Of a stretch of DNA of 64,000 nucleotides, positions 11,658-42,401 are shown in pieces. Source of the stretch: a virus; IMG/VR virus record IMGVR_UViG_3300048592_000962, positions 32,001 through 96,000 of that record; one strand, 5' to 3'. Position 1 is the first letter of the stretch, and each line of letters opens with the position of its first letter. The position numbers and the translations under genes are program-made. Under the pieces are notes generated by a model. The model did not search any database and was not told where the DNA came from. It saw nothing but the letters and a program-made list of their open reading frames with translations.

Positions 11658-12146
11658 ATGGGCGACGAAACGGAACTCCCGCTTGGCGGGGAGGAAGAGG
11701 TTTCGGTGCGCGAACCGGGCCAGCAGGTGCCCGTGGCCACCGATCGGTCCGACTACTACGAGCCCGGCCGCCTCGCGGTTGCGGTTGGCGCCGACGGGCT
11801 TCCCGTCGTGGCAGGCGAGCCACCCTCGGGCCCAGAGCCAGGTCTCACGGACGACAACCTCGTGTGTTTGGAAGCTCCGGGGCGCCCTGCCTGCGAGCAT
11901 CTCGTGTCGCTACTCCGCCCAGCAGATGGCGTTTCGAGAGGGCACGGGCAGCTCCGGCAGATGCGGCGCTTCTGCACTCGCCTCGCGACGGCCTCGGAGC
12001 TTTTCGAGGTGGACGGCGACATCTTCGCGTGCAGCGCCCGAACTCCGGTCGATGTTCAGTCGAACAAGCTGATTCGCGAGTTCGAGAAGCGCCAAAAAGA
12101 GGTGGCCGCAGAGGCTGCACAAGAACAGGGCGAAGTGGACTTCTGA
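11658..12146 (+). CDS. hypothetical Cys-containing protein
   Basis: First gene of the plus-strand operon, with typical codon usage. Confidence 0.75.
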   Translation: MGDETELPLGGEEEVSVREPGQQVPVATDRSDYYEPGRLAVAVGADGLPVVAGEPPSGPEPGLTDDNLVCLEAPGRPACEHLVSLLRPADGVSRGHGQLRQMRRFCTRLATASELFEVDGDIFACSARTPVDVQSNKLIREFEKRQKEVAAEAAQEQGEVDF

Positions 12147-12160
12147 TGGGAGACGAACGA

Positions 12161-12754
12161 ATGTCGAAGAAGCAGGAACAGCAGGACGTGCCGCAGCTTC
12201 CGCCGCAGTTGCGAGGCAAGCTCGACGAGATGGAGAAGTCTCGCAAGAAGGTCCTCAAGGACCCGAACTTCGCTCGCGCAGATCAGCTGAAGGTGTTCGT
12301 GGGCACCGTGCTCATGCCGCAGGTCTCCGACTTCCTGGAGACGCTGAGCCTGGCGTTCATGGACGCCTACGGCCTCTCGGTCTCGAACGCGAATCAGATG
12401 CGTCGTCTCCACGGCTGGGTGGTCGAGGAAATGAATCGCCTCGGGGCCGATGTCGGAGATCCGGAGCTTCCCGGCGTCAGCAGCGAGGTGATCGACGAGC
12501 TTCAGCAGGCGTTCTTCGCGTTGGGGCAGCTTCTGGAGAAGAAGCTTCCGAACGACGAGGAGACGGAGACCGCGTACAACCGTTGCGCGAAGATGATGAG
12601 CGAACTCGTCGCCGAGCTGATGGGCGACGACTACGGAGACGAGGAAGACGACGAGGATGAGGGCGATGACGAGCCGGATGATGACGGCGAGTCGGGCGAG
12701 GCGACCGAGGGCGAAGCCGGCGACGAAGAGTCCGAGCCGACGGAGAGTGAGTGA
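12161..12754 (+). CDS. helical protein with acidic tail
   Basis: GGAG RBS (alternative start 12146); D/E-rich C-terminus. Confidence 0.8.
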   Translation: MSKKQEQQDVPQLPPQLRGKLDEMEKSRKKVLKDPNFARADQLKVFVGTVLMPQVSDFLETLSLAFMDAYGLSVSNANQMRRLHGWVVEEMNRLGADVGDPELPGVSSEVIDELQQAFFALGQLLEKKLPNDEETETAYNRCAKMMSELVAELMGDDYGDEEDDEDEGDDEPDDDGESGEATEGEAGDEESEPTESE

Positions 12755-15078
12755 TGGACGACGCGCTCAACGAGGTGGAGCGCCTTGTAAGCGAGAGCGC
12801 GGAGCGACAGCGACCCTCCAAGAACCGGCGGACCGTGAAACCGAAGGAAGAGGCACCGGTGGAAGACGACATCGATCTCGACGAAGAAACCGAAGACGCC
12901 GCTCCGCCCAAGCCTCGCGTGCGCCGTGTTTCTCGAAAGGCTGAAACCGTGAACCTCGACGAGGTGACCCAGGAACAGGTGGACAACCTGTTGCCTCCCG
13001 AAGCGCCGGAGCCGGAAGAGAAGAGCCGCTCCCTCGACGACATGTACGCGAAGTTCGGCATCGGTTCCAGGCCGGAGTTCAAGATCCAGGTGCACCGCAC
13101 GTGGCCCAAGATGGCGCCCGGCGGGGACAAGTTCGACGGGTACTACGACACCTGGGACATGCCGCTCTCGATGGATGAGATCCAGCGGGAGTACGGTGGC
13201 GGCCACTATCTGATCGTGGTCGTGGGTCCGAATCCCAAGTCTCCGAATTTGTCGAGGCGGTACGCCTCGTTCAATTTGGATTTGCCGGGTCGACCGAAGT
13301 ACGAGCGCAGACCCAACGCGGCGAAGCCGAATCCTGCGGAGGTCGAAGCGTCTACGTCCCCGGTGGCGATCCCACCGCCAGTGCATGTCCAAGAGAACGC
13401 GAAGCTGTCGGAGCAAGCGATGAAGCTCGCGTTCGACGTGTCGGAGCGCGAGCGTGACGAGCGCAGGCGAGCCGAGGAGAAGGCAGAGGCCCGTGCGGCT
13501 CAGGCGGAGGGTGCGATGCGACCGTTGCTGGAGGCAGAGCGCCGCGCGGCGAAGGTCGAGGTCGATGCTGTGCGAGAGCGAGCAGAGCTGGAGCGTCGAC
13601 TGATGCAGCAGCAGCTTGATGAGCAACGCCAAAAGCAGGAAGAGTTGAGGCGAGAGATGGAGGAACGAATGCGTAGTCAACCATCGGTCGCCTCTGAGTT
13701 GAAGGCCCTTGCTGAAACGGGTCTGTTCGGCTCGAAAGACGAGGGCGCCACTCAGAAGATGGTCGAGCAGATTCTCGAACGTCACCAGCGCGAGTTGGCG
13801 ATGATTCACGAGACTCACTCCAAGTTCATCGAGGCGTTGCGTTCGGCGCATCAGACCGAGTTGCAGGCCATTCGCGATTCGCAGCGGCGTGAGTTGGAAG
13901 CTGAGCGCGAAGCGGGTAGGAGCCGTGAGCAGCGTATCGAAGACAGGCTTGCGTCGGAGCGTGAGGAGCGTCGTCGGGACCAGGAGCACGAGAAGAAGCG
14001 CCTCGAAGAGCGCGATCTCATGTGGAAGGACCGGATGGAGCAGGCCATTCAGATGAAGGAGCAGAGCTGGGAGTCTCGTCACTCTTCGATGCTGTCCGCG
14101 CACGAGATGCGGATGATGTCGTTGCAGTCGGAGATCGACCGGCTCAAGGCCGAACTCGATGCGACCAAGCACAAGGTGACCGACAGCTCCGATCCCGTCG
14201 CTCAGATGATGAAGTGGCGCGAGATGCAGACCGTCATGAAGGACGTTCTGGACATCAAGGAGTCGGCCCCTGCGACCTCCGGCGGCATCGGCATCGGCGG
14301 TGGCGGAGAGGATTGGAAGCAAGCGCTCGCCGAGGGCGTCATGGAGCGCTTGCCCAGCATCCTCCAATTCCTGGGTGGGCAGGGTGGCCAGGCCCCGGCT
14401 CAGCCGGTGCCGCAGCAGCAGCCACAGGAAGGCGACCTGATCAACACGCCGCAGGGTCCGATGGTCGTGGTTCGAGACCCCGCCACGGGCCAACTCGCGC
14501 TCGCTCCGCAGGCGGCCGTCGAAGCGCATCGCCGTGCTCAGGCGCAGCAACAGCAGCGTGGGATCTTGCCGTCGGGCGGCGGTGGCGCGAATGCGTCCCG
14601 CAAGCGGCGTCCAGCATCTCGCGTCGCTCGGCCGGCCGAGAAGAAGCGGTCGGTGTCGGTCGTGCCGAATCTGGCCGAGGGCTTGCCGAGGCGAGCGGCG
14701 CCGTGGGAGGGCGGCGGGGAGATCGACGCTCCGCCTCCGGCACCGCCGCCCGAGCCGAGGATGCGGAGTCGGCCCGCGATCGAGCCGAGTGGCGAGCCGA
14801 TGGAGCTGTCGGCGGGCGAGCGTCAGGTCCTTCGCATGTTGGCAAAGGAAGTGAACGATCACGTGCTGGGCGGAGACGATCCGGAGGACATGATTCAGAA
14901 GCTGACGGCGAACTACCCGGTGGCGGTGTTGAAGCAGGCGGTGGGGCAGTACACGGTGAGTCAGATCGCACGGGGCATCGTGCAGGTGGAACCGAACGGT
15001 GCCGGCGCGACGCCGGCCGGACAGAAGTTCGTGTTCCAAGCCTTCACCGAATTGCAGAGGCTGCTCGCGGAAGAGTAG
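12751..15078 (+). CDS. large coiled-coil protein (possible scaffold or assembly factor)
   Basis: 775 aa with a long E/R/Q heptad region; no Walker motifs seen. Confidence 0.85.
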   Translation: MMDDALNEVERLVSESAERQRPSKNRRTVKPKEEAPVEDDIDLDEETEDAAPPKPRVRRVSRKAETVNLDEVTQEQVDNLLPPEAPEPEEKSRSLDDMYAKFGIGSRPEFKIQVHRTWPKMAPGGDKFDGYYDTWDMPLSMDEIQREYGGGHYLIVVVGPNPKSPNLSRRYASFNLDLPGRPKYERRPNAAKPNPAEVEASTSPVAIPPPVHVQENAKLSEQAMKLAFDVSERERDERRRAEEKAEARAAQAEGAMRPLLEAERRAAKVEVDAVRERAELERRLMQQQLDEQRQKQEELRREMEERMRSQPSVASELKALAETGLFGSKDEGATQKMVEQILERHQRELAMIHETHSKFIEALRSAHQTELQAIRDSQRRELEAEREAGRSREQRIEDRLASEREERRRDQEHEKKRLEERDLMWKDRMEQAIQMKEQSWESRHSSMLSAHEMRMMSLQSEIDRLKAELDATKHKVTDSSDPVAQMMKWREMQTVMKDVLDIKESAPATSGGIGIGGGGEDWKQALAEGVMERLPSILQFLGGQGGQAPAQPVPQQQPQEGDLINTPQGPMVVVRDPATGQLALAPQAAVEAHRRAQAQQQQRGILPSGGGGANASRKRRPASRVARPAEKKRSVSVVPNLAEGLPRRAAPWEGGGEIDAPPPAPPPEPRMRSRPAIEPSGEPMELSAGERQVLRMLAKEVNDHVLGGDDPEDMIQKLTANYPVAVLKQAVGQYTVSQIARGIVQVEPNGAGATPAGQKFVFQAFTELQRLLAEE

Positions 15079-15082
15079 GCTC

Positions 15083-15394
15083 ATGTCCGTGAAGGGCCTG
15101 GGCAACTATTCGTTTCAGCAGACAGAGCGGCGGCCGGGCACCGTGGTTTCGTACCGCGGTGACCGAGCCGTCGTGCGCTTTCGTGACGGGTCGACCTTCG
15201 GGATGCCCGCACAGGACTTGAAGGCAGCAGAGATAGCCGAGGGCGGCCACTTCGTGATGGTGGTTGTCCGTTCGGGCGCGTCAATCGTCGAGGTCAAGGT
15301 GGAGCCGCCGCCGCCGTCGAGAGAGACGTCGCCGACGTCTGCGCCGGGGAAGGTCTACATGCGCGCAGGCCGTCGCATTCACACCCGAAAGTAG
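15083..15394 (+). CDS. hypothetical protein
   Basis: MSVKGLGN..., 103 aa. Confidence 0.7.
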   Translation: MSVKGLGNYSFQQTERRPGTVVSYRGDRAVVRFRDGSTFGMPAQDLKAAEIAEGGHFVMVVVRSGASIVEVKVEPPPPSRETSPTSAPGKVYMRAGRRIHTRK

Positions 15395-15466
15395 CTCCTG
15401 GAGCGGCTTGCGGCGCTCCGGCAAGACGTGCGAGACTCGACGGGCTGATGGTGCTGGGGCCTCGGT

Positions 15467-16066
15467 ATGCCGATGCTCCGTCGATCTCACTACCAACGTC
15501 GCTACAACGCTGCGGTCGGAACGGTCGAGCCCTACCGAGGGACAGACCAGACGGTCGCGGTGATGTCGAGGCTCGTCCGCGACATACGTCCGCGTCAGAT
15601 GATTTCGACGGCGTTGGAGAGCGAACGCAGTCTGAAGGTGAGACGTCACACGGAGCAGATCGTCGGCAACATCCGGCCGAAGGACTACAGCTCCGAGATC
15701 ATCGCCATCTGCAAGTGGTGGGGCAACGCCGGCAGGTACACGAGAGATCCGCTTCACGTCGAGATGCTCCGAACACCAGAGCGTTTGATCGATGATGCGA
15801 TGGCCGGGAAGCTCGCGGCGGATTGCGATGAGTTCGCGACGGCAATCGCGGCCTGTTGCCTCGCGGTTGGGTCCAGGGCTCAGTTCGTCACCGTCGGATT
15901 TCAGCCGAGGCTTCCGGGTCAACCGAAGATTCACACGCACGTGTTCTGCCGGGCTCAGGACCCTCGAACCAAGGTTTGGTGGGTGCTGGATCCTGTCGCA
16001 GGACGCCGGACCGCTCAGATGCTGAAGCGGGTCAAGCAGTACACGATCTTCGAGGTGGATTCATGA
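15467..16066 (+). CDS. transglutaminase-like (Cys-His-Asp) protein, candidate virion maturation protease
   Basis: ADCDEFA...HTHVF...WWVLDPV triad pattern, immediately upstream of the membrane-protein cluster. Confidence 0.8.
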   Translation: MPMLRRSHYQRRYNAAVGTVEPYRGTDQTVAVMSRLVRDIRPRQMISTALESERSLKVRRHTEQIVGNIRPKDYSSEIIAICKWWGNAGRYTRDPLHVEMLRTPERLIDDAMAGKLAADCDEFATAIAACCLAVGSRAQFVTVGFQPRLPGQPKIHTHVFCRAQDPRTKVWWVLDPVAGRRTAQMLKRVKQYTIFEVDS

Positions 16067-16353
16067 GTTACTACCTCCGCAAGGGACCGATAGGGTCTAC
16101 CGAGCCGATGGAGCTGTCGCCTGCGGCAAGGACCGTCTCGGTGGGGTATCGCGTGGGTGCCGCGGTGGCGACGCCCCTGCTCGTGTATCACGGCTACCGA
16201 CGCAACGAGTCGATCGGCTGGGCTGTGGTCTGGGGGCTCATCGGTGGCGGATTCTGGGTGTTCGGGGTGCCACTGGCGCTCGCTCAGGGGTTCGCGAAGC
16301 GAAAGGTGCGATCGAACGCGAGGCGTCGTCGCACGAGCAGGAGAACGCGATGA
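16063..16353 (+). CDS. small membrane protein with Arg tail
   Basis: MSYY start, hydrophobic segments, VRSNARRRR tail. Confidence 0.8.
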   Translation: MSYYLRKGPIGSTEPMELSPAARTVSVGYRVGAAVATPLLVYHGYRRNESIGWAVVWGLIGGGFWVFGVPLALAQGFAKRKVRSNARRRRTSRRTR

Positions 16354-17198
16354 CGTACGGCGTGATGGGTTTGGGTTTGGACGCGGCGTCGATTGGCCGA
16401 GCGGTGGCCAGCGCCTACGGGACGCAGCGGCCCCCGCCGTCCGCGTCTTCGGGTTCTGCGCCACAGCAGTCGAGTTCGATGGCTTCTCAGATCGGCCGAG
16501 CGGTGGCCAGCGCCTACGGGACGCAGAAGGCGCCTCCGACAGCCACGCCCGGCACCTTGTTCACGAGATCACAGCCTGCGCGAGTCGGTCATGCGGCTGC
16601 GCAGGATCCGATTCTGGGGTCCGCGTCCCTGATGGCCGCGTCTCTTCTTCGACAGGTGTCCGGGCTCCCGGAGTCGAAGAGAATCGACGCGGCACGCAGG
16701 AAGCTCAACGAGATCCACCCTGGTCTCGGGAACACAGCCGTGTCTAAGGCGAAGGAGCTTCGCCGCAAAGGGCGTCCGTTCAACCAGGCGTTGTTCGATG
16801 GGATGCGGCTGGCGATCGCCAATCGCGTGGCCGAGTACACCGCGTCTCGCATGGGTGTCTCGGGACTCGGCGCGGTGAAGACCGAGAACTTGCAGGCGGG
16901 GTTCTGCGCGATGATCGGCGCGGGGACGGCGGGCGCGGGCATGGCGGCAGCTTTCAAGAACCCGACGGCCACCGAGGGGATTCTGTCGTCGGGGCAGGCG
17001 GGGGGTCAGATCGCAGGTTGTGGGGCTGGGACGCTGTCTCAGCAGGCAGCGGCGACGCAGGCTCAGCTGGATGCAGCAGCAGCGGCAGCGGCGGCGAGTT
17101 CGAGTTCGGGCGGGGGCACCTCGCCGTGGCTTTGGGCGGGGCTCGGGCTCGTCGCGATTGCGGGCATCGGCCTGGTGGTGGTCAAGGCGAAGTCATGA
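16350..17198 (+). CDS. putative virion membrane protein (paralog family A)
   Basis: C-terminal TM; DPILGSASLMAA/NQALFDGMRLAIA domain; 33-bp internal repeat at 16395 and 16494. Confidence 0.8.
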   Translation: MTYGVMGLGLDAASIGRAVASAYGTQRPPPSASSGSAPQQSSSMASQIGRAVASAYGTQKAPPTATPGTLFTRSQPARVGHAAAQDPILGSASLMAASLLRQVSGLPESKRIDAARRKLNEIHPGLGNTAVSKAKELRRKGRPFNQALFDGMRLAIANRVAEYTASRMGVSGLGAVKTENLQAGFCAMIGAGTAGAGMAAAFKNPTATEGILSSGQAGGQIAGCGAGTLSQQAAATQAQLDAAAAAAAASSSSGGGTSPWLWAGLGLVAIAGIGLVVVKAKS

Positions 17199-17902
17199 GC
17201 TACGCGCGTCGACAGAACCCGTCGGTGATCAGCGTGGGCCGTGCCGCCCACCGCGATCCCATCCTCGCGCAGGCATCTCTCGCCGCCGCGAAGATTCTTC
17301 GACAGGCCGTCTCCAAGCCTCGGTCGGTCCGGGAAGATTTCGTCCGAAACTCGTTGACGAGCAAGTACGGAACAGAGGCTGCTCGGTCCTACGAACGAGC
17401 GATGCGACGACTGAAGTCGAAGGGGTGGGCGAGGAATCAGTCCATCTACGATGCGATTCGACTCTCGATCGCCGATGCTCTGACACGAGAAGGACTTCTC
17501 GCAATCGACACAGCGATCAAACAGGAGATGGGCGTAGATCACGGTCTCGGGATCTCCGAGAAAGGTCGGCAGGTGGGCTGCGGCATCACGGGCGGAGTCA
17601 CGCTCGTAGGTGGGATCGTCGCGTCGATCTACGGCGGGCAGGCGGGCGGCACGGGGGCGAATGTTGGTGGTCAGCTGATCGGAACAGCGCTCGATTGCAG
17701 CAAGGCCGAGCGTGAGGCGGCTCAACGTCTCGCCGAGCAGCAAGCAGCGGCGGCTCAGGCTGAGCTGGCGCGGACGCAAGCGCTGGCCGAGCAAGAGGCC
17801 GCCCGAGGCAAGGAGACCACGAAGCGAGTTCTCGTGGTTGCGGGCATCGGCGGAGCTGTCGCGTTGGTGGGGCTCATCGGATATGCGATCGTGAAGGTCT
17901 GA
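17195..17902 (+). CDS. putative virion membrane protein (paralog family A)
   Basis: DPILAQASLAAA/NQSIYDAIRLSIA aligns with the previous gene; C-terminal TM. Confidence 0.8.
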   Translation: MSYARRQNPSVISVGRAAHRDPILAQASLAAAKILRQAVSKPRSVREDFVRNSLTSKYGTEAARSYERAMRRLKSKGWARNQSIYDAIRLSIADALTREGLLAIDTAIKQEMGVDHGLGISEKGRQVGCGITGGVTLVGGIVASIYGGQAGGTGANVGGQLIGTALDCSKAEREAAQRLAEQQAAAAQAELARTQALAEQEAARGKETTKRVLVVAGIGGAVALVGLIGYAIVKV

Positions 17903-17916
17903 GGCTGGAGACGACC

Positions 17917-19326
17917 ATGAAGGATTACGGCGACCTCTTCGACGACGATTACGGCGTGATGCCCCGCCCCACGATGCGCGGGTCTGCGAATCTCGACGTT
18001 CAGGACTACCAGGGGTACGACGGAGATTCGTCGATCCTCGACGACGATCTGCAAGAGGACACGCCCTCGCGCCCTGGCTCGGGCGCCGCGCCGGCACCGG
18101 ACATCGACGGTACCGACGACTACGACTTCCTCGAAGGCGACATGGACGATCCGGGCATGAAGCAGACGACCTACGGCGCGTCGCCGTGGGGCCCCGGTTC
18201 TTCCTCGGGCTACCGCCCGTACAGCCAGCAGCGAACGGACATGGCGCTCCGCGCTCTCGGCGATAGCCACACTCCGGAGACCAAGCCGATGCACGACGAC
18301 GAGATGATGCTGGAACCCGAGGTCATCGACGCGGTGGGCGCGAAGCCGATCGAGCCGTGGTCCAAGGAGTGGCACGGCAACCAGAACCAGATGCCGTCCA
18401 ATGCGGACATCGACCCGCTCACTCTCTACGATCGCTCGTCGTACGAGTACGACGACGACTCGTCTCAGTCGACGATCGGAAGCGGCATCTTCGACGTTGA
18501 AGAGGGCGTCACCTTCCGTCCTCGCGATGGCATCTTCGCCAACCAGTATGCGGTACCCGCGTACCTGGCAGAAGAGGATGAGCTGGGCGTGCAGCAGTCG
18601 GAGATGTGGGATTCGACGGCCGGCGAGTGGCGAGTCACTCAGCCTTCGGCGTCGGGTGTTCCTCTCTCGCGGAAGGTGCGGAAGCTGAAGCCTCCGCCGG
18701 CCGGTCTTCGTCCGGAAAAGACCGGGCCGAGGTCGCACGTCGAGGCCTTCGGTCGAAAGGCGGCGCGTACGCTTCTTCAGGAAGCTCAGGCGCATCAGGG
18801 CGCGAATCGTGAGCGCTTCATGGCGAATGCGATCTCCGCTCTCGGCCCGAACATGACGGTCACGGCGCGAAAGATCGCAGACGAGCTGATTCGTCTGGGG
18901 TATCCGGCCAACGTGGCGTTCGAGGATGCGCTCGCGCACTGCGTGATGCACGCGGCCGTTCGCGATCTGTTCGAGCGCGCCACCGGCAAGACGCGGAGCA
19001 TGCTCCCTCGCCTGGACCGAATGGCGAACACCGTGCAGCGGCGCAGCTCCGAGATGCGTGAGCACGCGAGCAAGCACCTGCTGCCTCTCACGCGCAACAC
19101 CGAGGACCTTCGGCGCGATCTCGGCGCGCTGTACGCGAGCCCGTGCGCCCGTGGTCTTGGGCAGGCGGCGGAAGGCGAAGCGCCGGTTGCGACGGCGCCC
19201 ACTCCGGCGGCGTCGATGATGACGACGCGGAATGTTCTGATCGCAGGCGGCCTCGGTCTCGGCGCGTTCCTGGTCTACAAGAACCGCAAGAAGATCGTCG
19301 CGAACGTCAAGAAGATGGTGAGGTGA
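17917..19326 (+). CDS. putative virion protein: acidic disordered N-terminus, family-A-like domain, C-terminal TM
   Basis: D-rich first 230 aa, RGLGQ, TM, IVANVKK tail. Confidence 0.8.
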   Translation: MKDYGDLFDDDYGVMPRPTMRGSANLDVQDYQGYDGDSSILDDDLQEDTPSRPGSGAAPAPDIDGTDDYDFLEGDMDDPGMKQTTYGASPWGPGSSSGYRPYSQQRTDMALRALGDSHTPETKPMHDDEMMLEPEVIDAVGAKPIEPWSKEWHGNQNQMPSNADIDPLTLYDRSSYEYDDDSSQSTIGSGIFDVEEGVTFRPRDGIFANQYAVPAYLAEEDELGVQQSEMWDSTAGEWRVTQPSASGVPLSRKVRKLKPPPAGLRPEKTGPRSHVEAFGRKAARTLLQEAQAHQGANRERFMANAISALGPNMTVTARKIADELIRLGYPANVAFEDALAHCVMHAAVRDLFERATGKTRSMLPRLDRMANTVQRRSSEMREHASKHLLPLTRNTEDLRRDLGALYASPCARGLGQAAEGEAPVATAPTPAASMMTTRNVLIAGGLGLGAFLVYKNRKKIVANVKKMVR

Positions 19327-33863: not shown

Positions 33864-35070
33864 GTTGTACATCGACAGCGATGTGCTGTCCGAGGCGCGC
33901 AATCGAGTATCCGCGACGTTCGACGAGTTTGAGAAAGTCTACGTCTCGTTCTCAGGAGGCAAAGACTCAACAGTCATGCTCGACATCGTAGCCACGGAGG
34001 CGAGGCTCCGCGGAAGGCGCTTCGGACTACTGTTTGTCGATCTTGAGGCACAGTACACGGCAACCATTGCTTTCGCAGAGTCACGCTTTGCTGCGTACGC
34101 AGACGTTGCGGACCCATTCTGGGTGGCCCTTCCACTGTCGCTCAGAAATGCCGTGAGCGTGCTGGAACACAAGTGGACGTGCTGGGACCATAGGGCGAAA
34201 GACAGGTGGGTCCGAAATCCACCGCATTTCGCAATCACAGACGAATCGCATTACGACTGGTTTCGACACGGCATGGAGTTCGAGGATTTCATCGTCGAGT
34301 GGGCTAAATGGTACTCAGGTCGGTGCTTTACGGCCTGCCTTGTCGGAATACGCACTGACGAGTCTATCAACAGGTTTCGAACCATCATGTCGGACACCAA
34401 AGGCACTCACGGCGGTAAGCCGTGGTCGACACAAGTGCCCGGCACGAACGTGTACAACGTGTATCCGATATACGATTGGAGTACGGCAGACATCTGGACC
34501 TATCACGCAAAGATGCGAGTTCCGTACAACCCTGTATACGACATGATGCATGCGGCAGGCTTGTCGCCGTCTCAGATGAGGATTTGTCAGCCATATGGAG
34601 ACGATCAGCGCAGGGGCCTGTGGCTGTATCACGTACTTGAGCCGGACACATGGACGCGCGTAGTGGCCAGGGTGGCTGGAGCAAACTTTGGCGCAGAATC
34701 GTCCCGTGCCCGCGGGAACATCAATGGTGTGGGGCGCGTCCAACTTCCAGAGGGCCATACCTGGCAGAGTTACGCGACGATGTTGGTGGAGAGCATGCCG
34801 CCGCACATGGCAGAGCACTACCGAACAAAGATCGGCGTATTTCTGAGGTGGTATGCCGATAAAGGCGGGTACGCCGACGGCATTCCGGATGAGGCTGACA
34901 GGACCGACGAGGCAGAGAAGAGAGCGCCATCTTGGAGAAGGGTCTGCAAGGCCATTCTTAGGAACGACTACTGGTGCAAGTCGTTGGGGTTTTCGCAGCA
35001 CAAGTCGGGCGCCTACGAGTCATACCTGCAACGCATGAGGGATCGGAGAATGCAATGGGCGACATCGTAG
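33853..35070 (+). CDS. PAPS-reductase-like/DUF3440 protein (IbrA/YbdN family)
   Basis: VSFSGGKDS PP-loop, LVGIRTDES, YPIYDW, MRICQPYGDDQRRGL, ILRNDYWC. Confidence 0.9.
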   Translation: MRRKLYIDSDVLSEARNRVSATFDEFEKVYVSFSGGKDSTVMLDIVATEARLRGRRFGLLFVDLEAQYTATIAFAESRFAAYADVADPFWVALPLSLRNAVSVLEHKWTCWDHRAKDRWVRNPPHFAITDESHYDWFRHGMEFEDFIVEWAKWYSGRCFTACLVGIRTDESINRFRTIMSDTKGTHGGKPWSTQVPGTNVYNVYPIYDWSTADIWTYHAKMRVPYNPVYDMMHAAGLSPSQMRICQPYGDDQRRGLWLYHVLEPDTWTRVVARVAGANFGAESSRARGNINGVGRVQLPEGHTWQSYATMLVESMPPHMAEHYRTKIGVFLRWYADKGGYADGIPDEADRTDEAEKRAPSWRRVCKAILRNDYWCKSLGFSQHKSGAYESYLQRMRDRRMQWATS

Positions 35071-35690
35071 CTCGGGCACGCAAGTTGTTTGCTGAACTTG
35101 ACGCGATGGATCTCGATGAGCGCGTGGAGTCGATCAACGCGATTCGTGAGGCGCTTGCGGAGAGGTCGCCATTTGCGAGCCACCCGGTTGACCTTGTCCG
35201 ATGGGTCCGAGCGACCGATGTGGTTGCGAACAGCTACAACCCGAACACCGTGGCGCCACCAGAGATGGAGCTTCTGCGTTTGTCGATCGAGTCCGATGGT
35301 TACACGCAGCCTGTCGTCGCGAACAGAGAGGCGACCGGTTACGAGGTGGTTGACGGGTTTCACCGGTCGAAGGTTGGCAAGGAGTCCGTCTCTGTAAAGC
35401 AGGCGACGCTGGGGTACTTGCCGGTCGTTCAGATCCGTGCGTCGAGGGGAGGCGTACACGATCGGATGGCCGCAACCATTCGGCATAACAGGGCCAGGGG
35501 CAAGCACGGTGTCACGGAGATGTCAGCCATCGTGCTGGACCTGACGAGGCGAGGCTGGTCGTCGGCCAAGGTGGCGAAAGAGCTTGGGATGGATCCGGAC
35601 GAGGTTCTTCGGCTCAAACAGATTACTGGCTTGGCAGAGCTTTTTGCGGACAGGGAGTTCTCGAAGGCATGGATTCCTTCGGATGAGTAG
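35055..35690 (+). CDS. ParB-like protein (IbrB/YbdM family)
   Basis: NSYNPNTVAPPEM, DGYTQPVV, VVDGFHR, ATIRHNRARG, ELGMDPDEVLRLKQITG. Confidence 0.9.
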   Translation: MGDIVARARKLFAELDAMDLDERVESINAIREALAERSPFASHPVDLVRWVRATDVVANSYNPNTVAPPEMELLRLSIESDGYTQPVVANREATGYEVVDGFHRSKVGKESVSVKQATLGYLPVVQIRASRGGVHDRMAATIRHNRARGKHGVTEMSAIVLDLTRRGWSSAKVAKELGMDPDEVLRLKQITGLAELFADREFSKAWIPSDE

Positions 35691-35812: not shown

Positions 35813-36736
35813 ATGAACGACGATCCGCAGTTGGCCGCCTACCTTCGTAGGATGGGTGAGCAGCACGAGAGAATGCAGGCGCAGATCGCTGCGCTATCGA
35901 AGCGTACGGGCGCGCTGCTCTCGAAGTCCGAAGAAGACCGGATGGAGATGTCTCGTCTCCAGAAGGCGCTGAAGAAGGCCAGCGATCGCATTCGCTACGT
36001 CGAGGACATCCCCGGCAAGCGCGTGCCGTACTTCATGAACTTCGAGATCAACATTCCGGGACCGACGTCCCCGTCGTTGAATCTCGCCGGTCAGCGGCTC
36101 AGCGACACCAAGCAGGTGTCGATGGATGGCCCGTTCGTGTGCACGTCCTATCAGGCGTCGTTCCTGATGAAGACCTACTCGATCGGTCCGTACGGCGACG
36201 AGGAGTCGGGGCGTCCGAACGATCCTCCGGCGGGCACGGAGGTCACCACGCCGCTCTCCGGTCGCCTGCGACCGGTGGCGAGTACGTCCGATCCGTTCGC
36301 GGGCGCCTACATCGGCCCGCGCGTCGGTCCGGTCAGCATCGCGGGTGCGCAGACGGCGCAGACGTTGCGTCCGGGCGTGATCGACTTCTTGTTCGAGATC
36401 GCGGACGAGGGCGTGGACCGGCTTCGGCAGAACCAGGTCCCGACGCCGTCGAGGTACCTGTACAGCGAGTTCGATCGCCCGTACTACCTGCCCGTCAGCG
36501 ACTTCTTCGAGCGCGGCTCCTCGATCCGATTCGCCGCCACCCTCACGCGCGACCTCGGCTACGTCGAGATCAACTCCACGTTGCTCCCGAACGGGTTCGT
36601 GGAGACGAGCGTGACGCCGCCGCCCGATCCGGCCGCGACGGGTGACGTCGGCCGGCTCGTGTGCGCGGTCGGTGGTACGCTCTACTTCAGCATGGTCGGC
36701 TACAAGATCCTCCAGGCGCAGAGCCCGGCGGTCTGA
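35813..36736 (+). CDS. putative minor capsid/vertex protein (N-terminal coil plus beta-rich domain)
   Basis: Strong codon bias. PYYLPV..SSIRF..LYFSMVGYK parallels the C-terminus of the capsid candidate. Confidence 0.55.
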   Translation: MNDDPQLAAYLRRMGEQHERMQAQIAALSKRTGALLSKSEEDRMEMSRLQKALKKASDRIRYVEDIPGKRVPYFMNFEINIPGPTSPSLNLAGQRLSDTKQVSMDGPFVCTSYQASFLMKTYSIGPYGDEESGRPNDPPAGTEVTTPLSGRLRPVASTSDPFAGAYIGPRVGPVSIAGAQTAQTLRPGVIDFLFEIADEGVDRLRQNQVPTPSRYLYSEFDRPYYLPVSDFFERGSSIRFAATLTRDLGYVEINSTLLPNGFVETSVTPPPDPAATGDVGRLVCAVGGTLYFSMVGYKILQAQSPAV

Positions 36737-36753: not shown

Positions 36754-37437
36754 ATGTCGAGCACACCCAGGGGTAACACGAGCGCTCAGCCGGGCGCGCC
36801 GTTGCCGCAGAGTCGTCCGGGAGGCAAGGTCGATCCCGTCAGGATCGTCAACGGCTTCACCGCGACGCTCCCTGGGCGCTCGCGCCTTTTCTTCCAGCGA
36901 CAGTTCTTCGCGGACTGTCCTCGTCCGATCCAGATTTCGGGCCCGCCGGGCTTCCCTCGACAGGTGCCCATCGTCAGCTTTGAGCTGCCGAAACGCCAGT
37001 CACTCGTCATCCGTCGCGTGGACTTCAAGGCGTTCGAGAGCGGCGGCATTGGGCCCAACGACATCTCCGAGGTGCCCTACGGCCGGTCGATCGGAACACT
37101 CGCGTTCCAGTTCGCAGTCGGCAATCGCGGGCTCACCGACAGCCTCACGAACCTTCCCGTGCAGGGCATCCCGGTGCAGTACACGGTCGCGCAGGTCGGC
37201 GGCCCCGTGGCGCCCATCACGCCCTCGGGCAACGTCAAGCAGGGCACGGGCGTCGCGACGCCCGATGCGCGACAGGACATGTTCGCGGGGTACGGCATGC
37301 CCGGCGACCTCGTCACCGCCACCGCCCTCGTCCTGAGGCCACCGGACTTCGACTGCCGATTCTTCCAGGTCTACATCGAAGGCTGGCTCGCGGACGAAAA
37401 GGAGCTTCAGGCGATCATCGACATGATTTCTGGCTGA
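36754..37437 (+). CDS. putative beta-rich structural protein
   Basis: Strong codon bias; ends QVYIEGWL. Confidence 0.55.
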   Translation: MSSTPRGNTSAQPGAPLPQSRPGGKVDPVRIVNGFTATLPGRSRLFFQRQFFADCPRPIQISGPPGFPRQVPIVSFELPKRQSLVIRRVDFKAFESGGIGPNDISEVPYGRSIGTLAFQFAVGNRGLTDSLTNLPVQGIPVQYTVAQVGGPVAPITPSGNVKQGTGVATPDARQDMFAGYGMPGDLVTATALVLRPPDFDCRFFQVYIEGWLADEKELQAIIDMISG

Positions 37438-39361: not shown

Positions 39362-39955
39362 GTGGCATCGCGGCGACGAAAGACGGCAAACGGTTTCGAT
39401 CTCATCGACGACATGATCGACTCGGCGGTGGGAACCGTCTTCGACCGCGTGGGCGAGGTGGTCGAGCGAACCCTGACGCAGCAGCGGGCCAACATGTCGC
39501 CCGAACAGCTGGCTGCCGAATACACGTGTGCCGCGTGCAGAAAGAGCTTCACGGTCAAGCACATCGAGATGATGCACCCGAGCAACGGCTACTGCCTGTG
39601 CAAGGGCTGCTTCAAGTTCCTGTGGAAGGCCGGCGAAGAGAAGGTTCGCGCTCTCGGAAAGAACGCTGCCCATCGAGCTGTTCAGGAGCCGCCTGCGTCT
39701 CCTGGGCCTGGACCGTCTGCCAGCGCGTCTACCGGGCCGGCGTCGGCGGGGGCGCTTCCATGGGTGGTTCTGGGTGTTTCCGAAGACGCGAGCGTCGAGG
39801 ACATCAAGAAGGCCTATCGAAAGCTCGCTGCTGTGTGGCATCCCGATCGCGTGCCTCCTGGGGCTCCGACCGAGGAGAAGCAGCGGGCTACGGAGAAGTT
39901 CCACGAGATCACTCGTGCGCGCGACGTGATGCTGAAGGTGAGGGGCATTGATTGA
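39362..39955 (+). CDS. Zn-finger plus C-terminal DnaJ-domain protein
   Basis: CxxC..CxxC; LGVSEDAS..IKKAYRKLAAVWHPDR..F.EI. Confidence 0.9.
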   Translation: MASRRRKTANGFDLIDDMIDSAVGTVFDRVGEVVERTLTQQRANMSPEQLAAEYTCAACRKSFTVKHIEMMHPSNGYCLCKGCFKFLWKAGEEKVRALGKNAAHRAVQEPPASPGPGPSASASTGPASAGALPWVVLGVSEDASVEDIKKAYRKLAAVWHPDRVPPGAPTEEKQRATEKFHEITRARDVMLKVRGID

Positions 39956-40326
39956 ATCTCTCCCCATACCGACGAGACATCCCGTTCGGCCAGGTTCCTG
40001 ACTACAAGACCTTCGTCAGGCATTCGTGGCTATTCGTCGACGAGCATGGTCACAGAGCGGTCACGAAGCCTCCGGTGATGTTCCAGATGAGATTCTCCGC
40101 CGAAGAGGCTGTAGTCGTAAGAGACTCTCTTGATTTTCTGCGCGCCTTCATCGAGAGATCTCGCGCTGCATTGTTTGTAGACGGCGCGACGCTGATACTT
40201 CAGGTGTACGACTTGGATGCGCTCCACGCTTTGGCGATGGCGGTATCCGCGAGGCACCCTGTTTCTGAGACGCATCGAAAAGTTGCCGAGAGTTTGATCT
40301 GGGCGCTGGGATTCAGGTGGGTGTGA
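39952..40326 (+). CDS. hypothetical protein
   Basis: 124 aa, coupled. Confidence 0.65.
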   Translation: MNLSPYRRDIPFGQVPDYKTFVRHSWLFVDEHGHRAVTKPPVMFQMRFSAEEAVVVRDSLDFLRAFIERSRAALFVDGATLILQVYDLDALHALAMAVSARHPVSETHRKVAESLIWALGFRWV

Positions 40327-41231
40327 TGCGATACGGTGACCGTGGAATCGATGTCGAGAACCTTCAGAAGGTTCTCATCTCTCGCGGCTATGAACTGCCT
40401 CAGTTCGGCGCGGATGGGCATTTGGGCGACGAGACGTGGGATGCGCTTCAGCGCTTCAGCCGCGATTCCGCTCTCGCGTGGGCTCCGGAAGTGCCGTTCG
40501 GGACGCTGGATGTGCTGATCAAGAAGAAGCCGTCGCCTCCGGTTGTGGCGCCGTTGCCGCCGGCAGCGACGGGTGAGCCGAAGGTTCCGTTTCTCGATCT
40601 GCGACACCTTCAGAAAGACCCTCATCCCAAGTCGAAGACGCAGGGGCATCGGACGGTTCGTCGTGCCCCATCGGCTGTGAACGCCATCACGATCCATCAG
40701 ACAGCCGTGAAGTTCTCGGTGACGAAGGCGCAGGTCGCAGCAGCCGGAGGAGACCGTCAGATGGCCCTCGGCCGCCGTGCGCTCAACGTCGCATGCCACG
40801 CCATGTCGTTCCACGACGGGTTCTTCGTCGCGGCGGCGCCGTTGGATTGGTACATCTACCACGGGAATGGGTTCAACCGGTTCGCGTTGGGGCTGGAGAT
40901 CGACGGTGTTTATCCGGGGCTGAAGGGTGGAAAGACCTGGAACGGAGACCCCGCGACCGAGCTGACGGATGCGTCGGTGTTGGCGGCACGAGAGGCCTTG
41001 CGCTGGCTCACGGAGAACGGCAGGAAGGCCGGCATGCCGATCGAATGGATTGACGCTCACCGGCAGTCCTCGGCGACACGTCGTTCCGATCCGGGGGAAG
41101 CTCTGTGGGAATCGGTCGTGCTCGATTACGCGGTGCCCGTGCTCGGACTGAAGACTCGCCCGAGCTACATCGTGGGAGACGGTCGCCCTGTCCCCACCGA
41201 GTGGGATCCGAACGGCGTCGGTCGCTACTGA
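40317..41231 (+). CDS. endolysin: PG-binding domain plus N-acetylmuramoyl-L-alanine amidase
   Basis: LQKVL..GADGHLGDET; ITIHQTA, HGNGFN..GLEIDG, AHRQS..DPG. Confidence 0.85.
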   Translation: MGVMRYGDRGIDVENLQKVLISRGYELPQFGADGHLGDETWDALQRFSRDSALAWAPEVPFGTLDVLIKKKPSPPVVAPLPPAATGEPKVPFLDLRHLQKDPHPKSKTQGHRTVRRAPSAVNAITIHQTAVKFSVTKAQVAAAGGDRQMALGRRALNVACHAMSFHDGFFVAAAPLDWYIYHGNGFNRFALGLEIDGVYPGLKGGKTWNGDPATELTDASVLAAREALRWLTENGRKAGMPIEWIDAHRQSSATRRSDPGEALWESVVLDYAVPVLGLKTRPSYIVGDGRPVPTEWDPNGVGRY

Positions 41232-41291
41232 GACTCCGTCACAGTCGTCTGGTACGATGGTCTGACCAATCGACACTCAGCGGAGGTACCC

Positions 41292-41651
41292 ATGGGCCCC
41301 TTGGATCTGTTCTTCGGCATCGCGCCTCTTCTTCTCGCCGGCATCATCTGGATGCTGGTTCAGCTGCTCAAGGCAGGCATCGACTACCGGCTCGGCCGAG
41401 AGAAGCGTCGAGAGAAAGTCTGGCTGACGCGCATCGTTCTACCTGCGATCCCGCCCGTGCTCGGGTTCGCCATCGCGATGTTTTTGCCGCTGCGACCGGA
41501 GTCTCTCGTCGACTTCGTGTCTCGTGCCGAGCTGAGCGACTGGCAGGCTCGTGCGGTGTACGGCGCGTGGGGCGCGGCAGTCGGCCAGTTCGCGGACTAC
41601 CTGTACAGCAAGCTCAAGTCGTTCATCCAAGACACGAGGCCTCAGCAGTGA
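41292..41651 (+). CDS. holin-like membrane protein
   Basis: 2-3 TMs, directly after the endolysin. Confidence 0.6.
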   Translation: MGPLDLFFGIAPLLLAGIIWMLVQLLKAGIDYRLGREKRREKVWLTRIVLPAIPPVLGFAIAMFLPLRPESLVDFVSRAELSDWQARAVYGAWGAAVGQFADYLYSKLKSFIQDTRPQQ

Positions 41652-41977
41652 AGCGCGTCTGGGATGCGCTGAAGAAGTGGGGCGCTGCGATTCTCGCGGC
41701 GCTCCTCTTCGTCGTGGGCGCGGGCTGGCTCTGGAATCGTCGCAAGGCACGTCGCATCGCGGATGCGCTGGCGGTCGAGAAGGCAACGAAGGAGATCGAA
41801 CGCCTTCGCGCAACGCGGGCACAGCTCGTCGAGCGCCTTGGTGAGAAGGACGAGGCGATCGAGGAGATCGACGCGGCGATCGAGGACAACAAAGCCGACA
41901 TCGTCGCCGCTTACGAAGACTTCGAGGAGATGACGACCGATGAAGTGGCTGACGTGTTTCGTCGTCTTGGTCTGTAG
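41648..41977 (+). CDS. spanin-like protein (N-terminal TM plus coiled coil)
   Basis: Topology and position in the lysis cassette. Confidence 0.5.
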   Translation: MKRVWDALKKWGAAILAALLFVVGAGWLWNRRKARRIADALAVEKATKEIERLRATRAQLVERLGEKDEAIEEIDAAIEDNKADIVAAYEDFEEMTTDEVADVFRRLGL

Positions 41978-42401
41978 CTCGGGGGCCCTTGCGCAGCCGG
42001 CGCTCCCGGCGGCAGATCTGCCGTGTGCTCCAGACGTGCTGGAGCCGCAGCGTCGAGCGGTCATTACCCACCAGGGTGCGACGGGGATTTGGTTTCACGC
42101 TGACGTTGCCCGCTGCATGGCCGAGCGCCTCTCCGTGCTTCCGCTCTACGCTGAGCGCGTGAGGCTACTGGAGCAGGCGTTGGAGCTGCGAGACCAGCGA
42201 CACGCGCTCGCCCTTCGCCAGGTGGAGGTCGTCTCGCAGAGCGAGCGCATCGCGGTGGAGGCCTTGGCGACGGCTGAGCGTCGGGCGAGGGAGTCGGAGG
42301 AGCGTGCGTCGAGGTGGTATCGGCACCCGGCGCTGTGGTTCCTCGTGGGTGTTGCGGTGACAGTTGGTGCTCAGATCGGAGTCTCCCAGCTGATCGAATA
42401 G
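41940..42401 (+). CDS. signal peptide, coiled coil and C-terminal TM protein (spanin-like)
   Basis: Overlaps the previous gene; lysis cassette context. Confidence 0.5.
   Translation: MKWLTCFVVLVCSSGALAQPALPAADLPCAPDVLEPQRRAVITHQGATGIWFHADVARCMAERLSVLPLYAERVRLLEQALELRDQRHALALRQVEVVSQSERIAVEALATAERRARESEERASRWYRHPALWFLVGVAVTVGAQIGVSQLIE

Follow-up and report, generated by a model that had tools for sequence, protein, structure and literature searches.

To our knowledge, all described bacterial viruses with genomes larger than ~50 kb are tailed and have HK97 capsid, portal, and terminase machinery, and the jelly-roll, membrane-containing phages are all small (10 to 44 kb). We know of no described membrane-containing tailless phage larger than SSIP-1. 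PRD1 and PM2 (Tectiviridae, Corticoviridae) are tailless, lyse Gram-negative hosts, and have an internal membrane with many small viral membrane proteins, some of them directed at the cell wall. They combine a double jelly-roll capsid with an FtsK/HerA ATPase in genomes of 10-15 kb. In the Singelaviria/Helvetiavirae (P23-77, IN93, SH1, HHIV-2, and HCIV-1), two capsid proteins, each a vertical single jelly roll, lie over an internal membrane, and in their 16-31-kb genomes an A32/FtsK-type ATPase gene adjoins the capsid genes. SSIP-1 is likewise reported to have two types of capsid protein (PMC6356626). All characterised PRD1- and P23-77-type bacterial internal-membrane dsDNA phages have an FtsK/HerA-type ATPase (PMC8328091). 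In the Portogloboviridae, Sulfolobus polyhedral virus 1 (SPV1) has a shell of VP4 and VP10 and a nucleoprotein core of VP1 (PDB 6OJ0; PMC8459092). SPV1 has a 20-kb genome and a hyperthermophilic archaeal host, is non-lytic, and is without a packaging ATPase.

The locus described here lies in a 64,000-nt window (positions 32,001 to 96,000 of IMG/VR record IMGVR_UViG_3300048592_000962) of the genome of an uncultured wastewater virus, the class virus having been assigned by IMG/VR. The genome is complete at 159,872 bp (ends overlapping by 127 nt; CheckV completeness, 100%) and assembles as a circle of 160 kb, and it thus exceeds the window, as an initial annotation of the window had claimed. The contiguous gene block described in that annotation is also present: from ~11706 to 43772 in window coordinates, ~43 co-oriented, coding genes occupy the + strand, which carries all of the features located below. 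Matches to known families within the block were limited to an endolysin/holin/spanin set, a J-domain protein, an IbrA/IbrB-like pair, and PcfJ. Pfam and PHROG scans showed that the genome encodes PcfJ, DUF932, ParB, integrase, and MoxR/VWA genes, and a 3'-5' exonuclease, helicases, and a methyltransferase are encoded as well. A scan for sigma-70 promoters and terminators found no more sites than in shuffled sequence.

The relatives of this virus, with genomes of 55-298 kb, form a large, uncultured family. Genome-wide comparisons were made with a five-genome set (G000 to G004) consisting of this genome and four relatives of 130-298 kb, each at least 90% complete, of which G4 and G1 are close relatives and G2 and G3 are distant ones. 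No match was found in 50,697 GenBank phage records, in the 72,556 plasmids of PLSDB, or in PHROGs, Pfam, or PDB sequences, and no publication describing the virus was found in a literature search. As far as could be checked, an undescribed lineage is supported.

The best-conserved protein of the family is the product of 31747-32529, a 260-aa major capsid protein candidate predicted to form a single jelly roll. The initial annotation had singled it out as a beta-rich capsid candidate, and it proved to be real and highly conserved. A total of 252 homologues were found, the best 120 of the 252 being at least 72% identical, and there were 81 clusters at the 50% level. The protein is 73-81% identical in relatives whose neighbouring genes show 33-65% identity and is still 34-35% identical in relatives with almost nothing else detectable. 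It has no signal peptide. Single distant homologues used as queries retrieved no IMG/VR loci.

An AF2 model of the capsid candidate built on an alignment of 99 diverse sequences was a single jelly roll (pLDDT 87, pTM 0.84), as had been expected; a model from 36 close homologues was useless (pLDDT 46). When the good model was compared by VIA-align against 48,161 chains, SPV1 VP4 was the top match, with a Z of 9.1 (9.5 in a second look) that exceeds the background given for the tool, 7-8, by only a modest margin, and it was the sole match at a Z of at least 8 in the first look (rmsd 3.2 Å, with 134-135 of 178 residues aligned). The likeness to VP4 is at the fold level only, with a sequence identity of 8-10%. 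Other matches were VP17 of P23-77 (Z 7.4, then 7.8 in the second look), HCIV-1 (6.9), HHIV-2 (6.3, then 6.8), and SH1 (6.3 in the second look); shell proteins of viruses with an internal membrane thus head the list. Viral jelly-roll capsid proteins likewise made up nearly all of the top-ranked rows of a Foldseek search. This fold is common, and decoration, cement, and fibre proteins of tailed phages share it; the model also matched a phage cement protein as well as a tail fibre (Z 5.6-7.1). At the sequence level, no homology with a known capsid protein was detected, and the family profile found nothing significant among PDB sequences. A relation to P2_N/P2_C of PM2, suggested by an ESM Atlas score of 0.76, was rejected, as the genome gave it no support. 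Two BFVD entries of 211 and 256 aa were among the better Foldseek matches (probability 0.98 and 0.82). These are also the lengths of gp46 and gp47 of SSIP-1, from which the entries may stem; the capsid profile had no significant match with gp46 or gp47 (hhalign E, 0.06 and 0.41).

Directly after the capsid gene there is a terminator-like hairpin (32557-32586) with a 13-bp G+C-rich stem followed by a U-rich run. The RNA fold of 32515-32600 had a predicted energy of -51.1 kcal/mol (z, -4.4), and 0 of 200 shuffles were as stable. In one metatranscriptome, the longest matching contig (916 nt) spanned exactly the capsid gene and its leader, a weak hint that the gene is highly expressed, given that contig data cannot rank expression.

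The capsid gene belongs to a module that is the sole gene set common to the whole family. The order of its genes, namely a coiled-coil protein, a cysteine protease, membrane proteins with Arg tails, a protamine-like protein, the capsid gene, and a partner gene, is conserved in 19 loci, in 4 loci with a short capsid gene, and in whole genomes, the relatives ranging from 55 to 298 kb. The first two genes of the block (11706-12754) encode a 146-aa ORFan and a 197-aa protein, possibly a scaffold or chaperone, the C terminus of which forms a strongly acidic tail. Both are conserved in close relatives G4 and G1, and neither had a family match in Pfam or PHROGs. The following gene (12751-15078) encodes a 775-aa protein that combines a globular N-domain with a charged coiled coil of ~260 aa and is kept in the distant relatives (26-27% identity over ~500 aa) and in the short-capsid group. 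It had no Pfam, PHROG, or PDB match and is a candidate scaffold or capsid-size ruler. The gene at 15467-16066, a core gene of the module, encodes a transglutaminase-fold cysteine protease with a weak Transglut_core match. Cys120, His158, and Asp175 are invariant in six relatives, down to 34% identity, and the protein is a candidate virion maturation protease; its family profile found nothing significant among PDB sequences.

The protease gene is followed by an array of ~14 genes for small to medium-sized membrane proteins (16063-25183), mostly with one transmembrane (TM) helix near the C terminus and then an Asn and a run of Arg. Many of them begin M-[ST]-Y...[LM]-G. Hydropathy and tail scans found at least 12 proteins with a single TM helix, Asn, and an Arg run, in line with the many small TM proteins noted initially. 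PG_binding_1 was detected in three members of the block (Pfam), and, judged from their sequences, two of the array proteins probably carry a peptidoglycan-binding N-domain. Two conserved ORFans of 116 and 235 aa are encoded at 26158-27290. The 235-aa protein is a core gene product; in an alignment of 14 relatives, its motifs MYRxDKW and DYKH are invariant and its C terminus reads DGIxG. It had no PDB or family match. The profile of a 469-aa protein also found nothing significant among PDB sequences.

Upstream of the capsid gene, 28057-30771 encodes a protamine-like protein of 904 aa with 184 Arg and 58 Lys versus 45 acidic residues. Basic residues make up 31-46% of positions 101-600, the last ~250 residues, at the C terminus, are hydrophobic and Gly/Ala rich, and the gene contains a 42-nt tandem unit. 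A basic protein of 400-940 aa holds the equivalent position in all relatives. The composition suggests a candidate DNA-condensing core protein that may be tied to the membrane. A paralogue of its C-terminal hydrophobic domain (216 aa) is encoded at 30915-31565 (BLASTP, 32% identity over 304 columns; E, 3e-22).

Downstream of the capsid gene, the partner gene (35813-36736) encodes a 307-aa protein with an N-terminal coiled coil and then a conserved domain. In the first set it adjoins the capsid gene in each of the 19 loci, and among the four short-capsid loci it does so in three. Its product, the second-best conserved protein (alignment of 16 sequences), may be a second capsid protein or a vertex protein. 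The family profile found nothing significant among PDB sequences. The 227-aa product of 36754-37437, a candidate minor structural protein, is conserved in the closer relatives only. The initial annotation had regarded these two as similar proteins, but hhalign detected no resemblance of either one to the capsid candidate, nor of the two to one another (probability, <1%). A cassette at 32577-35690, comprising a 428-aa open reading frame, a PAPS-reductase/DUF3440 (IbrA-like) gene, and a ParB-like (IbrB-like) gene (matches to PHROG 2302 and 2159 and to Pfam PAPS_reduct, DUF3440, and ParB_N), is a variable insertion with lower GC. Of 19 related loci only 4 have this cassette, which is outside the conserved module.

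Behind these genes, a J-domain co-chaperone had been proposed, and PF00226 (DnaJ) was found in the C-terminal part of the product of 39362-39955 (8.7e-14), a protein that is conserved in relatives, including the short-capsid group. The proposed lysis cassette was also recovered, at 40317-42401: an endolysin with PG_binding_1 and Amidase_2 (40317-41231), a holin-like protein with two TM helices (41292-41651), and two spanin-like proteins matching Rz-like spanin PHROGs (41648-42401). The two glycosyltransferase genes of the initial annotation are present, but at 48392-50802, outside the interval in which they had been placed (phrog_2170 in two members; 1.8e-11). One of them is conserved even in the distant relatives (tblastn against G2 and G3).

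In order to evaluate the reported lack of tailed-phage genes, the rest of the genome and the four relatives were searched. In six-frame searches of the five genomes, Terminase_6N, TerL_ATPase, Terminase_3, Terminase_6C, and GpA_ATPase, as well as the HK97 and T4 capsid families Phage_capsid and Gp23, had no matches at an E of ≤1. The same was true of Phage_portal, SPP1_portal, Phage_sheath_1, and PhageMin_Tail in the five genomes, and most of the searched families scored above the cut-off in control genomes. No terminase, portal, HK97 capsid, or tail match was found for 50 block proteins compared with Pfam and PHROGs, and scans of the remaining proteins of the genome against both collections found no structural or packaging family. 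Thus, terminase, HK97, portal, and tail genes were not found in the remainder of the contig either, and the tailless reading survives. FtsK_SpoIIIE and Capsid_NCLDV had no matches at an E of ≤1 in the five genomes, the double-jelly-roll capsid families P2_N and P2_C had none, and the best score for Pox_A32 was 12.6 bits, in one relative; the FtsK/A32-type ATPase that had not been visible in the window was found nowhere in the genome. Furthermore, no P-loop protein is common to G000, G2, and G3, and none lies inside the module. Seven large ORFans (321-1121 aa) outside the block, conserved in close relatives only, could include a divergent motor; profile-to-PDB sequence searches with two of them gave nothing significant. 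A siphovirus-type head and tail block, with a 417-aa terminase, the 775-aa protein as portal, and the 904-aa protein as tape measure, was considered and rejected: there were no family matches, the 775-aa protein is mostly coiled coil, and the 904-aa protein is Arg/Ser rich.

These results suggest, with a probability of about 0.58, a tailless, membrane-containing bacterial virus with a jelly-roll shell, in which DNA is condensed without a motor and of which window positions 11.7 to 37.4 kb would be the virion-building module, with the lysis genes behind it. The initial reading, a large tailless membrane virus of an undescribed lineage, is supported by the gene searches and by the capsid fold, and we infer the lack of a tail, the lipid, and the icosahedral symmetry from gene content. 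The jelly-roll protein would build an icosahedral shell, and the lipid membrane associated with this shell would carry the membrane proteins of the module. Rather than being pumped into a preformed head, the DNA would be condensed by the 904-aa protein and the Arg tails of the membrane proteins and then enclosed by membrane and shell. The conserved cysteine protease may mature virion proteins, the 775-aa protein may serve as scaffold or size ruler, and release from a Gram-negative-type host would be via the endolysin, holin, and spanins.

SPV1 follows the design proposed here, enclosure without a motor. The two viruses have in common a single jelly-roll shell protein (here the capsid candidate, with VP4 as its best structural match), membrane proteins encoded in the virion module, a core protein that is strongly basic and binds DNA (here a candidate), a genome that assembles as a circle, and their own glycosyltransferase and methyltransferase, and no packaging ATPase was found in either. 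With regard to the VP1 nucleoprotein core of the Portogloboviridae, the observations here are that searches found no ATPase and that the 904-aa protein, with its 242 basic residues, is encoded beside the capsid gene. Unlike SPV1, the virus described here has 160 kb (relatives, up to 298 kb), bacterial lysis genes, and its own 3'-5' exonuclease and helicases. The capsid candidate also matches the Singelaviria/Helvetiavirae in fold, and the conserved partner gene recalls their pair of small and large capsid genes, although the sequence of its product does not resemble the capsid candidate. P23-77 has a bacterial host, as would this virus, but the ATPase gene next to the capsid genes was not found here. 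The genome is ~3.7 times larger than that of SSIP-1. The likeness to PRD1 and PM2 would extend to tailless particles, membrane proteins, and lysis; neither a double jelly-roll capsid gene nor an FtsK/HerA ATPase gene was found, and the model has one barrel. Adenovirus (protein VII, mu, and the protease adenain) is a design analogy only, in that the genome, condensed by Arg-rich proteins, lies inside a jelly-roll shell and the virion has a cysteine protease. Adenain trims many structural precursors at short Gly-containing motifs, and by analogy the protease here might cleave virion proteins. However, it is transglutaminase/papain-like by sequence and not of the adenain clan, no homology is involved, and adenovirus has a packaging ATPase.

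The same kind of tailless jelly-roll virus might instead fill a preformed, membrane-lined procapsid with a motor that is too divergent to detect or is borrowed from the host. The ATPase of all characterised PRD1- and P23-77-type phages and the large ORFans without an assigned fold speak for such packaging, but it seems unlikely: the ORFans are not conserved past close relatives, no P-loop protein is shared with the distant relatives or lies in the module, neither FtsK_SpoIIIE nor Pox_A32 gave more than the single low score noted above, and a protamine-like protein with a net charge of ~+200 would be an odd companion for motor packaging. We place in the same low range another architecture, either an outer envelope around a jelly-roll nucleocapsid or a pleomorphic, non-icosahedral particle. 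The positive-inside rule puts the TM-adjacent Arg tails on the cytoplasmic face, so that the membrane would wrap a cytoplasmic core, a topology hard to reconcile with a PRD1-type internal vesicle. The probable peptidoglycan-binding N-domains of two membrane proteins would fit an exposed outer surface, and the lack of a signal peptide in the capsid candidate is also consistent with this arrangement. On the other hand, the best structural matches (SPV1, P23-77, HCIV-1, HHIV-2, and SH1) are all outer-shell proteins over an internal membrane, and the holin/endolysin/spanin set implies that particles are put together in the cytoplasm and set free by lysis.

A very divergent tailed jumbo phage, the hallmark genes of which escaped the profiles and in which 31747-32529 encodes a decoration, cement, or fibre protein, is less probable still. 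In jumbo phages, structural genes often escape detection; the weaker structural matches included jelly-roll decoration and fibre proteins, and related clusters in the ESM Atlas are labelled 'Uroviricota', a label we take as the product of automatic taxonomy. However, eleven tailed-phage families gave nothing at an E of ≤1 in five genomes, and no ATPase is common to the family, whereas in phages the terminase gene is normally conserved best of all. In addition, the module proteins larger than 310 aa are limited to one coiled-coil, one TM-anchored, and one Arg-rich protein, and none of the 50,697 phage records matched. A plasmid or integrative element, with the block as a secretion, surface, or compartment system, is very improbable, even though PcfJ, DUF932, ParB, integrase, and MoxR/VWA genes are typical of conjugative elements. 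The lysis cassette is present, the hallmark gene of the family encodes a capsid-like jelly roll, IMG/VR classed the genome as a virus, and there were no matches among 72,556 plasmids. No conjugation or type IV secretion family was detected in the block with Pfam or PHROGs, and a conjugation or type IV secretion operon was rejected on these grounds.

The virus was present in sludge and wastewater samples, and part of the stretch was found in 20 runs of sludge reactors from 13 studies. The capsid gene was found on eight contigs of metagenome-assembled genomes, three of which were binned with Planctomycetota and one with Lentisphaeraceae; it was present in only 2 of 401 sampled Planctomycetota genomes.

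With a 160-kb genome and a candidate jelly-roll shell, this virus would exceed every described virus of its type several-fold in size. A broader claim is offered tentatively, as one we hold at somewhat below even odds: that these are the first giant (130-300 kb) tailless bacterial viruses, a lineage that ranks as a family at the least and perhaps far above that and has no sequence relation to classified viruses, with a jelly-roll shell and lipid membrane, a protamine-condensed genome, and no motor, and common in wastewater and other waters. If the motor-less, tailless reading is correct, a widespread jelly-roll family of 55-298 kb without a recognisable motor would break the rule that large phages are tailed, and large genomes in bacteria could be enclosed by condensation rather than by pumping. 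The SPV1 design, known from one archaeal family, would gain a bacterial counterpart about eight times larger. Automatic taxonomy labels such genomes as tailed phages, and this kind of virus would therefore be miscounted in viromes. In sludge reactors, the family is abundant enough for its particles to be purified and imaged.

The window corresponds to positions 32001-96000 of one 159,872-bp contig (62% G+C) whose last 127 bases are a copy of its first bases (assembly overlap). IMG/VR lists it as a viral sequence with direct terminal repeats, and its CheckV completeness is 100%. A codon-usage model trained on the same contig predicted 235 genes. About 43 genes lie head to tail on the + strand (window 11706-43772), preceded by opposite-strand genes, DUF932 and ParB-like genes among them, and followed by genes that include glycosyltransferases, a kinase-like protein and a UvrD helicase. 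Elsewhere in the genome are genes for thymidylate synthase, methyltransferases, Gam and endonuclease VII, as well as an SNF2-family helicase that is split by an intein, which itself contains a LAGLIDADG homing endonuclease domain (genome positions 127265-130486).

A second block, kept in close relatives, lies before the window (genome positions 4308-18391) and encodes a 3'-5' exonuclease, a 1041-aa ResIII helicase and ORFans of 1121 and 443 aa. It looks like a replication module; no recognizable DNA polymerase catalytic subunit was found in it. The tyrosine integrase (genome positions 143189-144226) is conserved even in distant relatives and, together with an excisionase-like gene (genome positions 18092-18391) and two ParB-like genes, suggests a temperate or plasmid-like resident state.

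Each of the 50 proteins encoded in window 11.7-47.8 kb was compared individually with PHROGs and Pfam. Matches were limited to, on the + strand, an endolysin with PG_binding_1 and Amidase_2 domains (40317-41231), Rz-like spanins (41648-42401), a PAPS-reductase/DUF3440 protein with a ParB-like protein (33853-35690) and DnaJ (39362-39955), together with a SLOG protein and PcfJ. The lysis genes and the J-domain co-chaperone reported in the initial annotation were therefore recovered. None of the 50 proteins matched a head, portal, terminase, connector, tail, baseplate or tape-measure family, and the ten largest proteins of the block had no match in either database. Outside the block, no protein of at least 340 aa matched a structural or packaging family in Pfam or PHROGs, and in two PHROG scans of the remaining proteins, the 25 top-scoring families listed for each included none of a structural kind. 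Because weaker families (43 and 54) stood outside those listed, six-frame profile searches with a reporting limit of E ≤ 1 were run on five genomes, this one and those of four relatives (130-298 kb; completeness of at least 90% for each). There were zero matches in the five genomes to Terminase_6N, TerL_ATPase, Terminase_3, Terminase_6C, GpA_ATPase, Phage_capsid, Gp23, Phage_portal, SPP1_portal, Phage_sheath_1, PhageMin_Tail, FtsK_SpoIIIE or Capsid_NCLDV, and Pox_A32 gave a single 12.6-bit P-loop match in one relative. Most of the searched families were detected in prophage-carrying control genomes. Thus, the lack of terminase, portal, HK97 capsid and tail genes that had been noted for the window holds genome-wide, as does that of an FtsK/A32-type packaging ATPase; the remainder of the contig carries the integrase and neither a detectable packaging ATPase nor a detectable terminase.

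The 260-aa protein encoded at 31747-32529 had been proposed as a jelly-roll capsid protein. It has 252 homologues in a 90%-cluster collection, the best 120 of which are all at least 72% identical, and 81 clusters in a 50% library, extending to ∼26% identity over a common core of ∼190 residues. No Pfam or PHROG family covers these homologues, a 47-member profile had no match among PDB sequences, and searches for the protein in 50,697 GenBank phage records and in 72,556 plasmids were also negative. An AlphaFold2 model built with 99 diverse sequences (pLDDT, 87; pTM, 0.84; compared to a pLDDT of 46 with 36 close sequences) has the strand pattern of one beta-sandwich, with a long helix and two loop insertions. 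In an exhaustive comparison with 48,161 PDB representatives, the top match and the sole one at Z ≥ 8 was VP4, the shell protein of Sulfolobus polyhedral virus 1 (SPV1; Z, 9.1; rmsd, 3.2 Å; 135 of 178 residues aligned). P23-77 VP17 (Z, 7.4) and the triple jelly-roll protein of an archaeal virus (entry 4IND; Z, 7.3) were next, followed by HCIV-1 (Z, 6.9), HHIV-2 (Z, 6.3) and generic jelly rolls, including those of nucleoplasmin, PHM and the coats of small plant viruses. Rescoring of Foldseek candidates gave the same ranking (SPV1, 9.5; VP17, 7.8; HHIV-2, 6.8; SH1, 6.3); Foldseek alone yielded weak matches only, yet nearly all of the top rows were viral jelly-roll capsid proteins. Jelly-roll phage cement and fiber proteins were also among the matches (Z, 5.6-7.1). 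With the comparison tool, top Z scores of 7-8 often arise as background, so that values of 9.1-9.5 are supportive rather than conclusive. The predicted fold is therefore a single jelly roll, closest to the shell proteins of internal-membrane viruses, as had been anticipated.

A G+C-rich 13-bp hairpin with a U-rich tail (32557-32586; z, −4.4) lies 28 nt past the capsid stop codon and overlaps the start of the following ORF. In a biofilm metatranscriptome, the longest contig matching 22000-41900 was 916 nt and spanned 31579-32494 (capsid gene and leader), with other pieces of 347 nt or less; such contig sizes, which cannot rank expression, hint faintly at high expression of the capsid gene.

The capsid gene is separated from its partner, which encodes a 307-aa protein (35813-36736), by a cassette (32577-35690) comprising a 428-aa ORF, an IbrA-like PAPS reductase/DUF3440 gene and an IbrB-like ParB gene. 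Only 4 of 19 related loci carry the cassette, and its G+C content is lower; it is therefore an insertion. The 428-aa ORF had no match to LAGLIDADG Pfam families at E ≤ 0.01. The partner has an N-terminal coiled coil followed by a domain of ∼150-240 aa. Neither the partner nor the 227-aa protein encoded at 36754-37437 had detectable similarity to the capsid candidate or to the other (hhalign probability, <1%). The initial annotation had considered these proteins similar and had placed glycosyltransferases within 11658-42401, outside of which they lie; its other observations stand.

Among these is the abundance of small transmembrane proteins. At least 12 proteins, mostly encoded at 16063-25183, have a single hydrophobic helix near the C terminus, after which come Asn and 5-8 consecutive Arg residues. 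Three block proteins have a PG_binding_1 match: the endolysin and, probably, two membrane-anchored Arg-tail proteins (22092-22652 and 23389-23835), which suggests that membrane proteins of the virion attach to the cell wall. A 904-aa protein (28057-30771) contains 184 Arg and 58 Lys, with residues 101-600 being 31-46% basic, and has a hydrophobic C-terminal domain in common with the product of the next gene. Its gene includes 3.3 copies of a 42-nt (14-aa) tandem unit (28642-28781). A contig from one sludge DNA run lacks exactly 84 nt of it (two units, 28638-28723); thus, the number of units varies in natural populations. In a transglutaminase-fold cysteine protease (15467-16066), the triad of Cys120, His158 and Asp175 is unchanged in six relatives with identities as low as 34%. 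The N termini of many proteins encoded near the protease read M-[ST]-Y...[LM]-G, a possible cleavage or recognition site for it. A 235-aa core ORFan (26583-27290) belongs to no known family and has invariant MYRxDKW and DYKH motifs and an invariant D-G-I-x-G at its extreme C terminus.

In IMG/VR, 19 loci carry the capsid gene, on contigs of up to 298 kb, many longer than 110 kb, and a short-capsid subgroup (∼195 aa) is represented by four further contigs of 55-104 kb. Four relatives were taken as whole genomes for comparison. About a dozen genes are common to this genome and two distant relatives with capsid proteins 34-35% identical (tblastn). Those in the block encode a 775-aa coiled-coil protein (12751-15078), the cysteine protease, a small transmembrane protein, ORFans of 116 and 235 aa, the C-terminal domain of the Arg-rich protein, the capsid protein and the partner; those outside it encode a glycosyltransferase, the integrase, an SGNH hydrolase, a phosphatase and a few others. 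No P-loop ATPase is among the common genes, and each genome has its own P-loop proteins, helicases or MoxR-type proteins that are not common between genomes. In every group, the short-capsid one included, the order is coiled-coil protein, protease, basic-tail transmembrane proteins, 235-aa protein, basic protein of 400-940 aa, capsid protein and partner. The capsid protein is the most conserved (73-81% identity, compared to 60-71% for the partner and 33-58% for most neighbors). The conserved block resembles a virus hallmark module without a motor. ESM Atlas clusters of the capsid candidate and its partner carry the automatic taxonomy "Uroviricota," and none of the five near-complete genomes has a tailed-phage hallmark gene; virome surveys probably count viruses of this kind among the tailed phages by mistake.

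The gene content, the predicted fold of one protein, the conservation pattern and the lack of detectable motors are results of the analysis, and the steps of the following model are inferred from them and from SPV1 (PMC8459092) and PRD1-type phages (PMC6356626). The jelly-roll protein would form the capsomers of an icosahedral shell, with the partner, always encoded adjacent to it, as a second capsid protein or vertex protein. A dozen or more single-pass proteins would sit in a lipid membrane, and the two that probably bind peptidoglycan would serve at entry. The 904-aa protein and the Arg tails may neutralize and condense the genome, which would then be enclosed through assembly around the nucleoprotein rather than pumped in; this would explain why no ATPase is conserved. 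The cysteine protease may trim virion proteins, and the 775-aa coiled-coil protein may act as a scaffold or ruler for what must be a large shell; with 160 kb of loosely condensed DNA inside, the particle may exceed 120 nm and be removed by 0.2-μm filtration. Progeny would exit via holin, endolysin and spanins, which would indicate a host with an outer membrane.

We assign this combined model, a tailless jelly-roll membrane virus with motor-less genome enclosure, a probability of about 0.58. The initial interpretation, a tailless membrane-containing virus of an undescribed lineage, is supported, and the tailless, jelly-roll, membrane-bearing nature of the virus is its likelier part; enclosure without a motor is proposed more tentatively, at slightly less than even odds. 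The positive-inside rule puts Arg tails on the cytoplasmic face of a membrane. The virion membrane would therefore have to wrap a cytoplasmic core, a route that differs from PRD1 assembly, and the shell may be either external or internal to the lipid.

The window or part of it was found in 20 runs from 13 studies, mostly of sludge, wastewater and bioreactor samples. Of eight MAG contigs with the capsid gene, three were binned with Planctomycetota and one with Lentisphaeraceae. The gene was present in only 2 of 401 sampled Planctomycetota genomes.

The largest membrane-containing tailless phage, to our knowledge, is SSIP-1 (43.8 kb); profile comparison of its gp46 and gp47 with the capsid candidate was not significant. 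No published description of tailless bacterial viruses of the size found here was located. The closest design is that of SPV1 (Portogloboviridae), which has a 20-kb circular genome and for which a packaging ATPase is not among the gene functions given (PMC8459092), followed by viruses with two single jelly-roll capsid proteins, classified since 2025 in the realm Singelaviria (PMC12714852). The virus belongs to neither Portogloboviridae nor Singelaviria, because it has no sequence homology to SPV1 or Singelaviria, its genome is 5 to 15 times larger, its host is bacterial and lysed, and it is without a detectable form of the ATPase that defines the Helvetiavirae module. It would represent a much larger, apparently motor-less bacterial form of the jelly-roll membrane-virus design.
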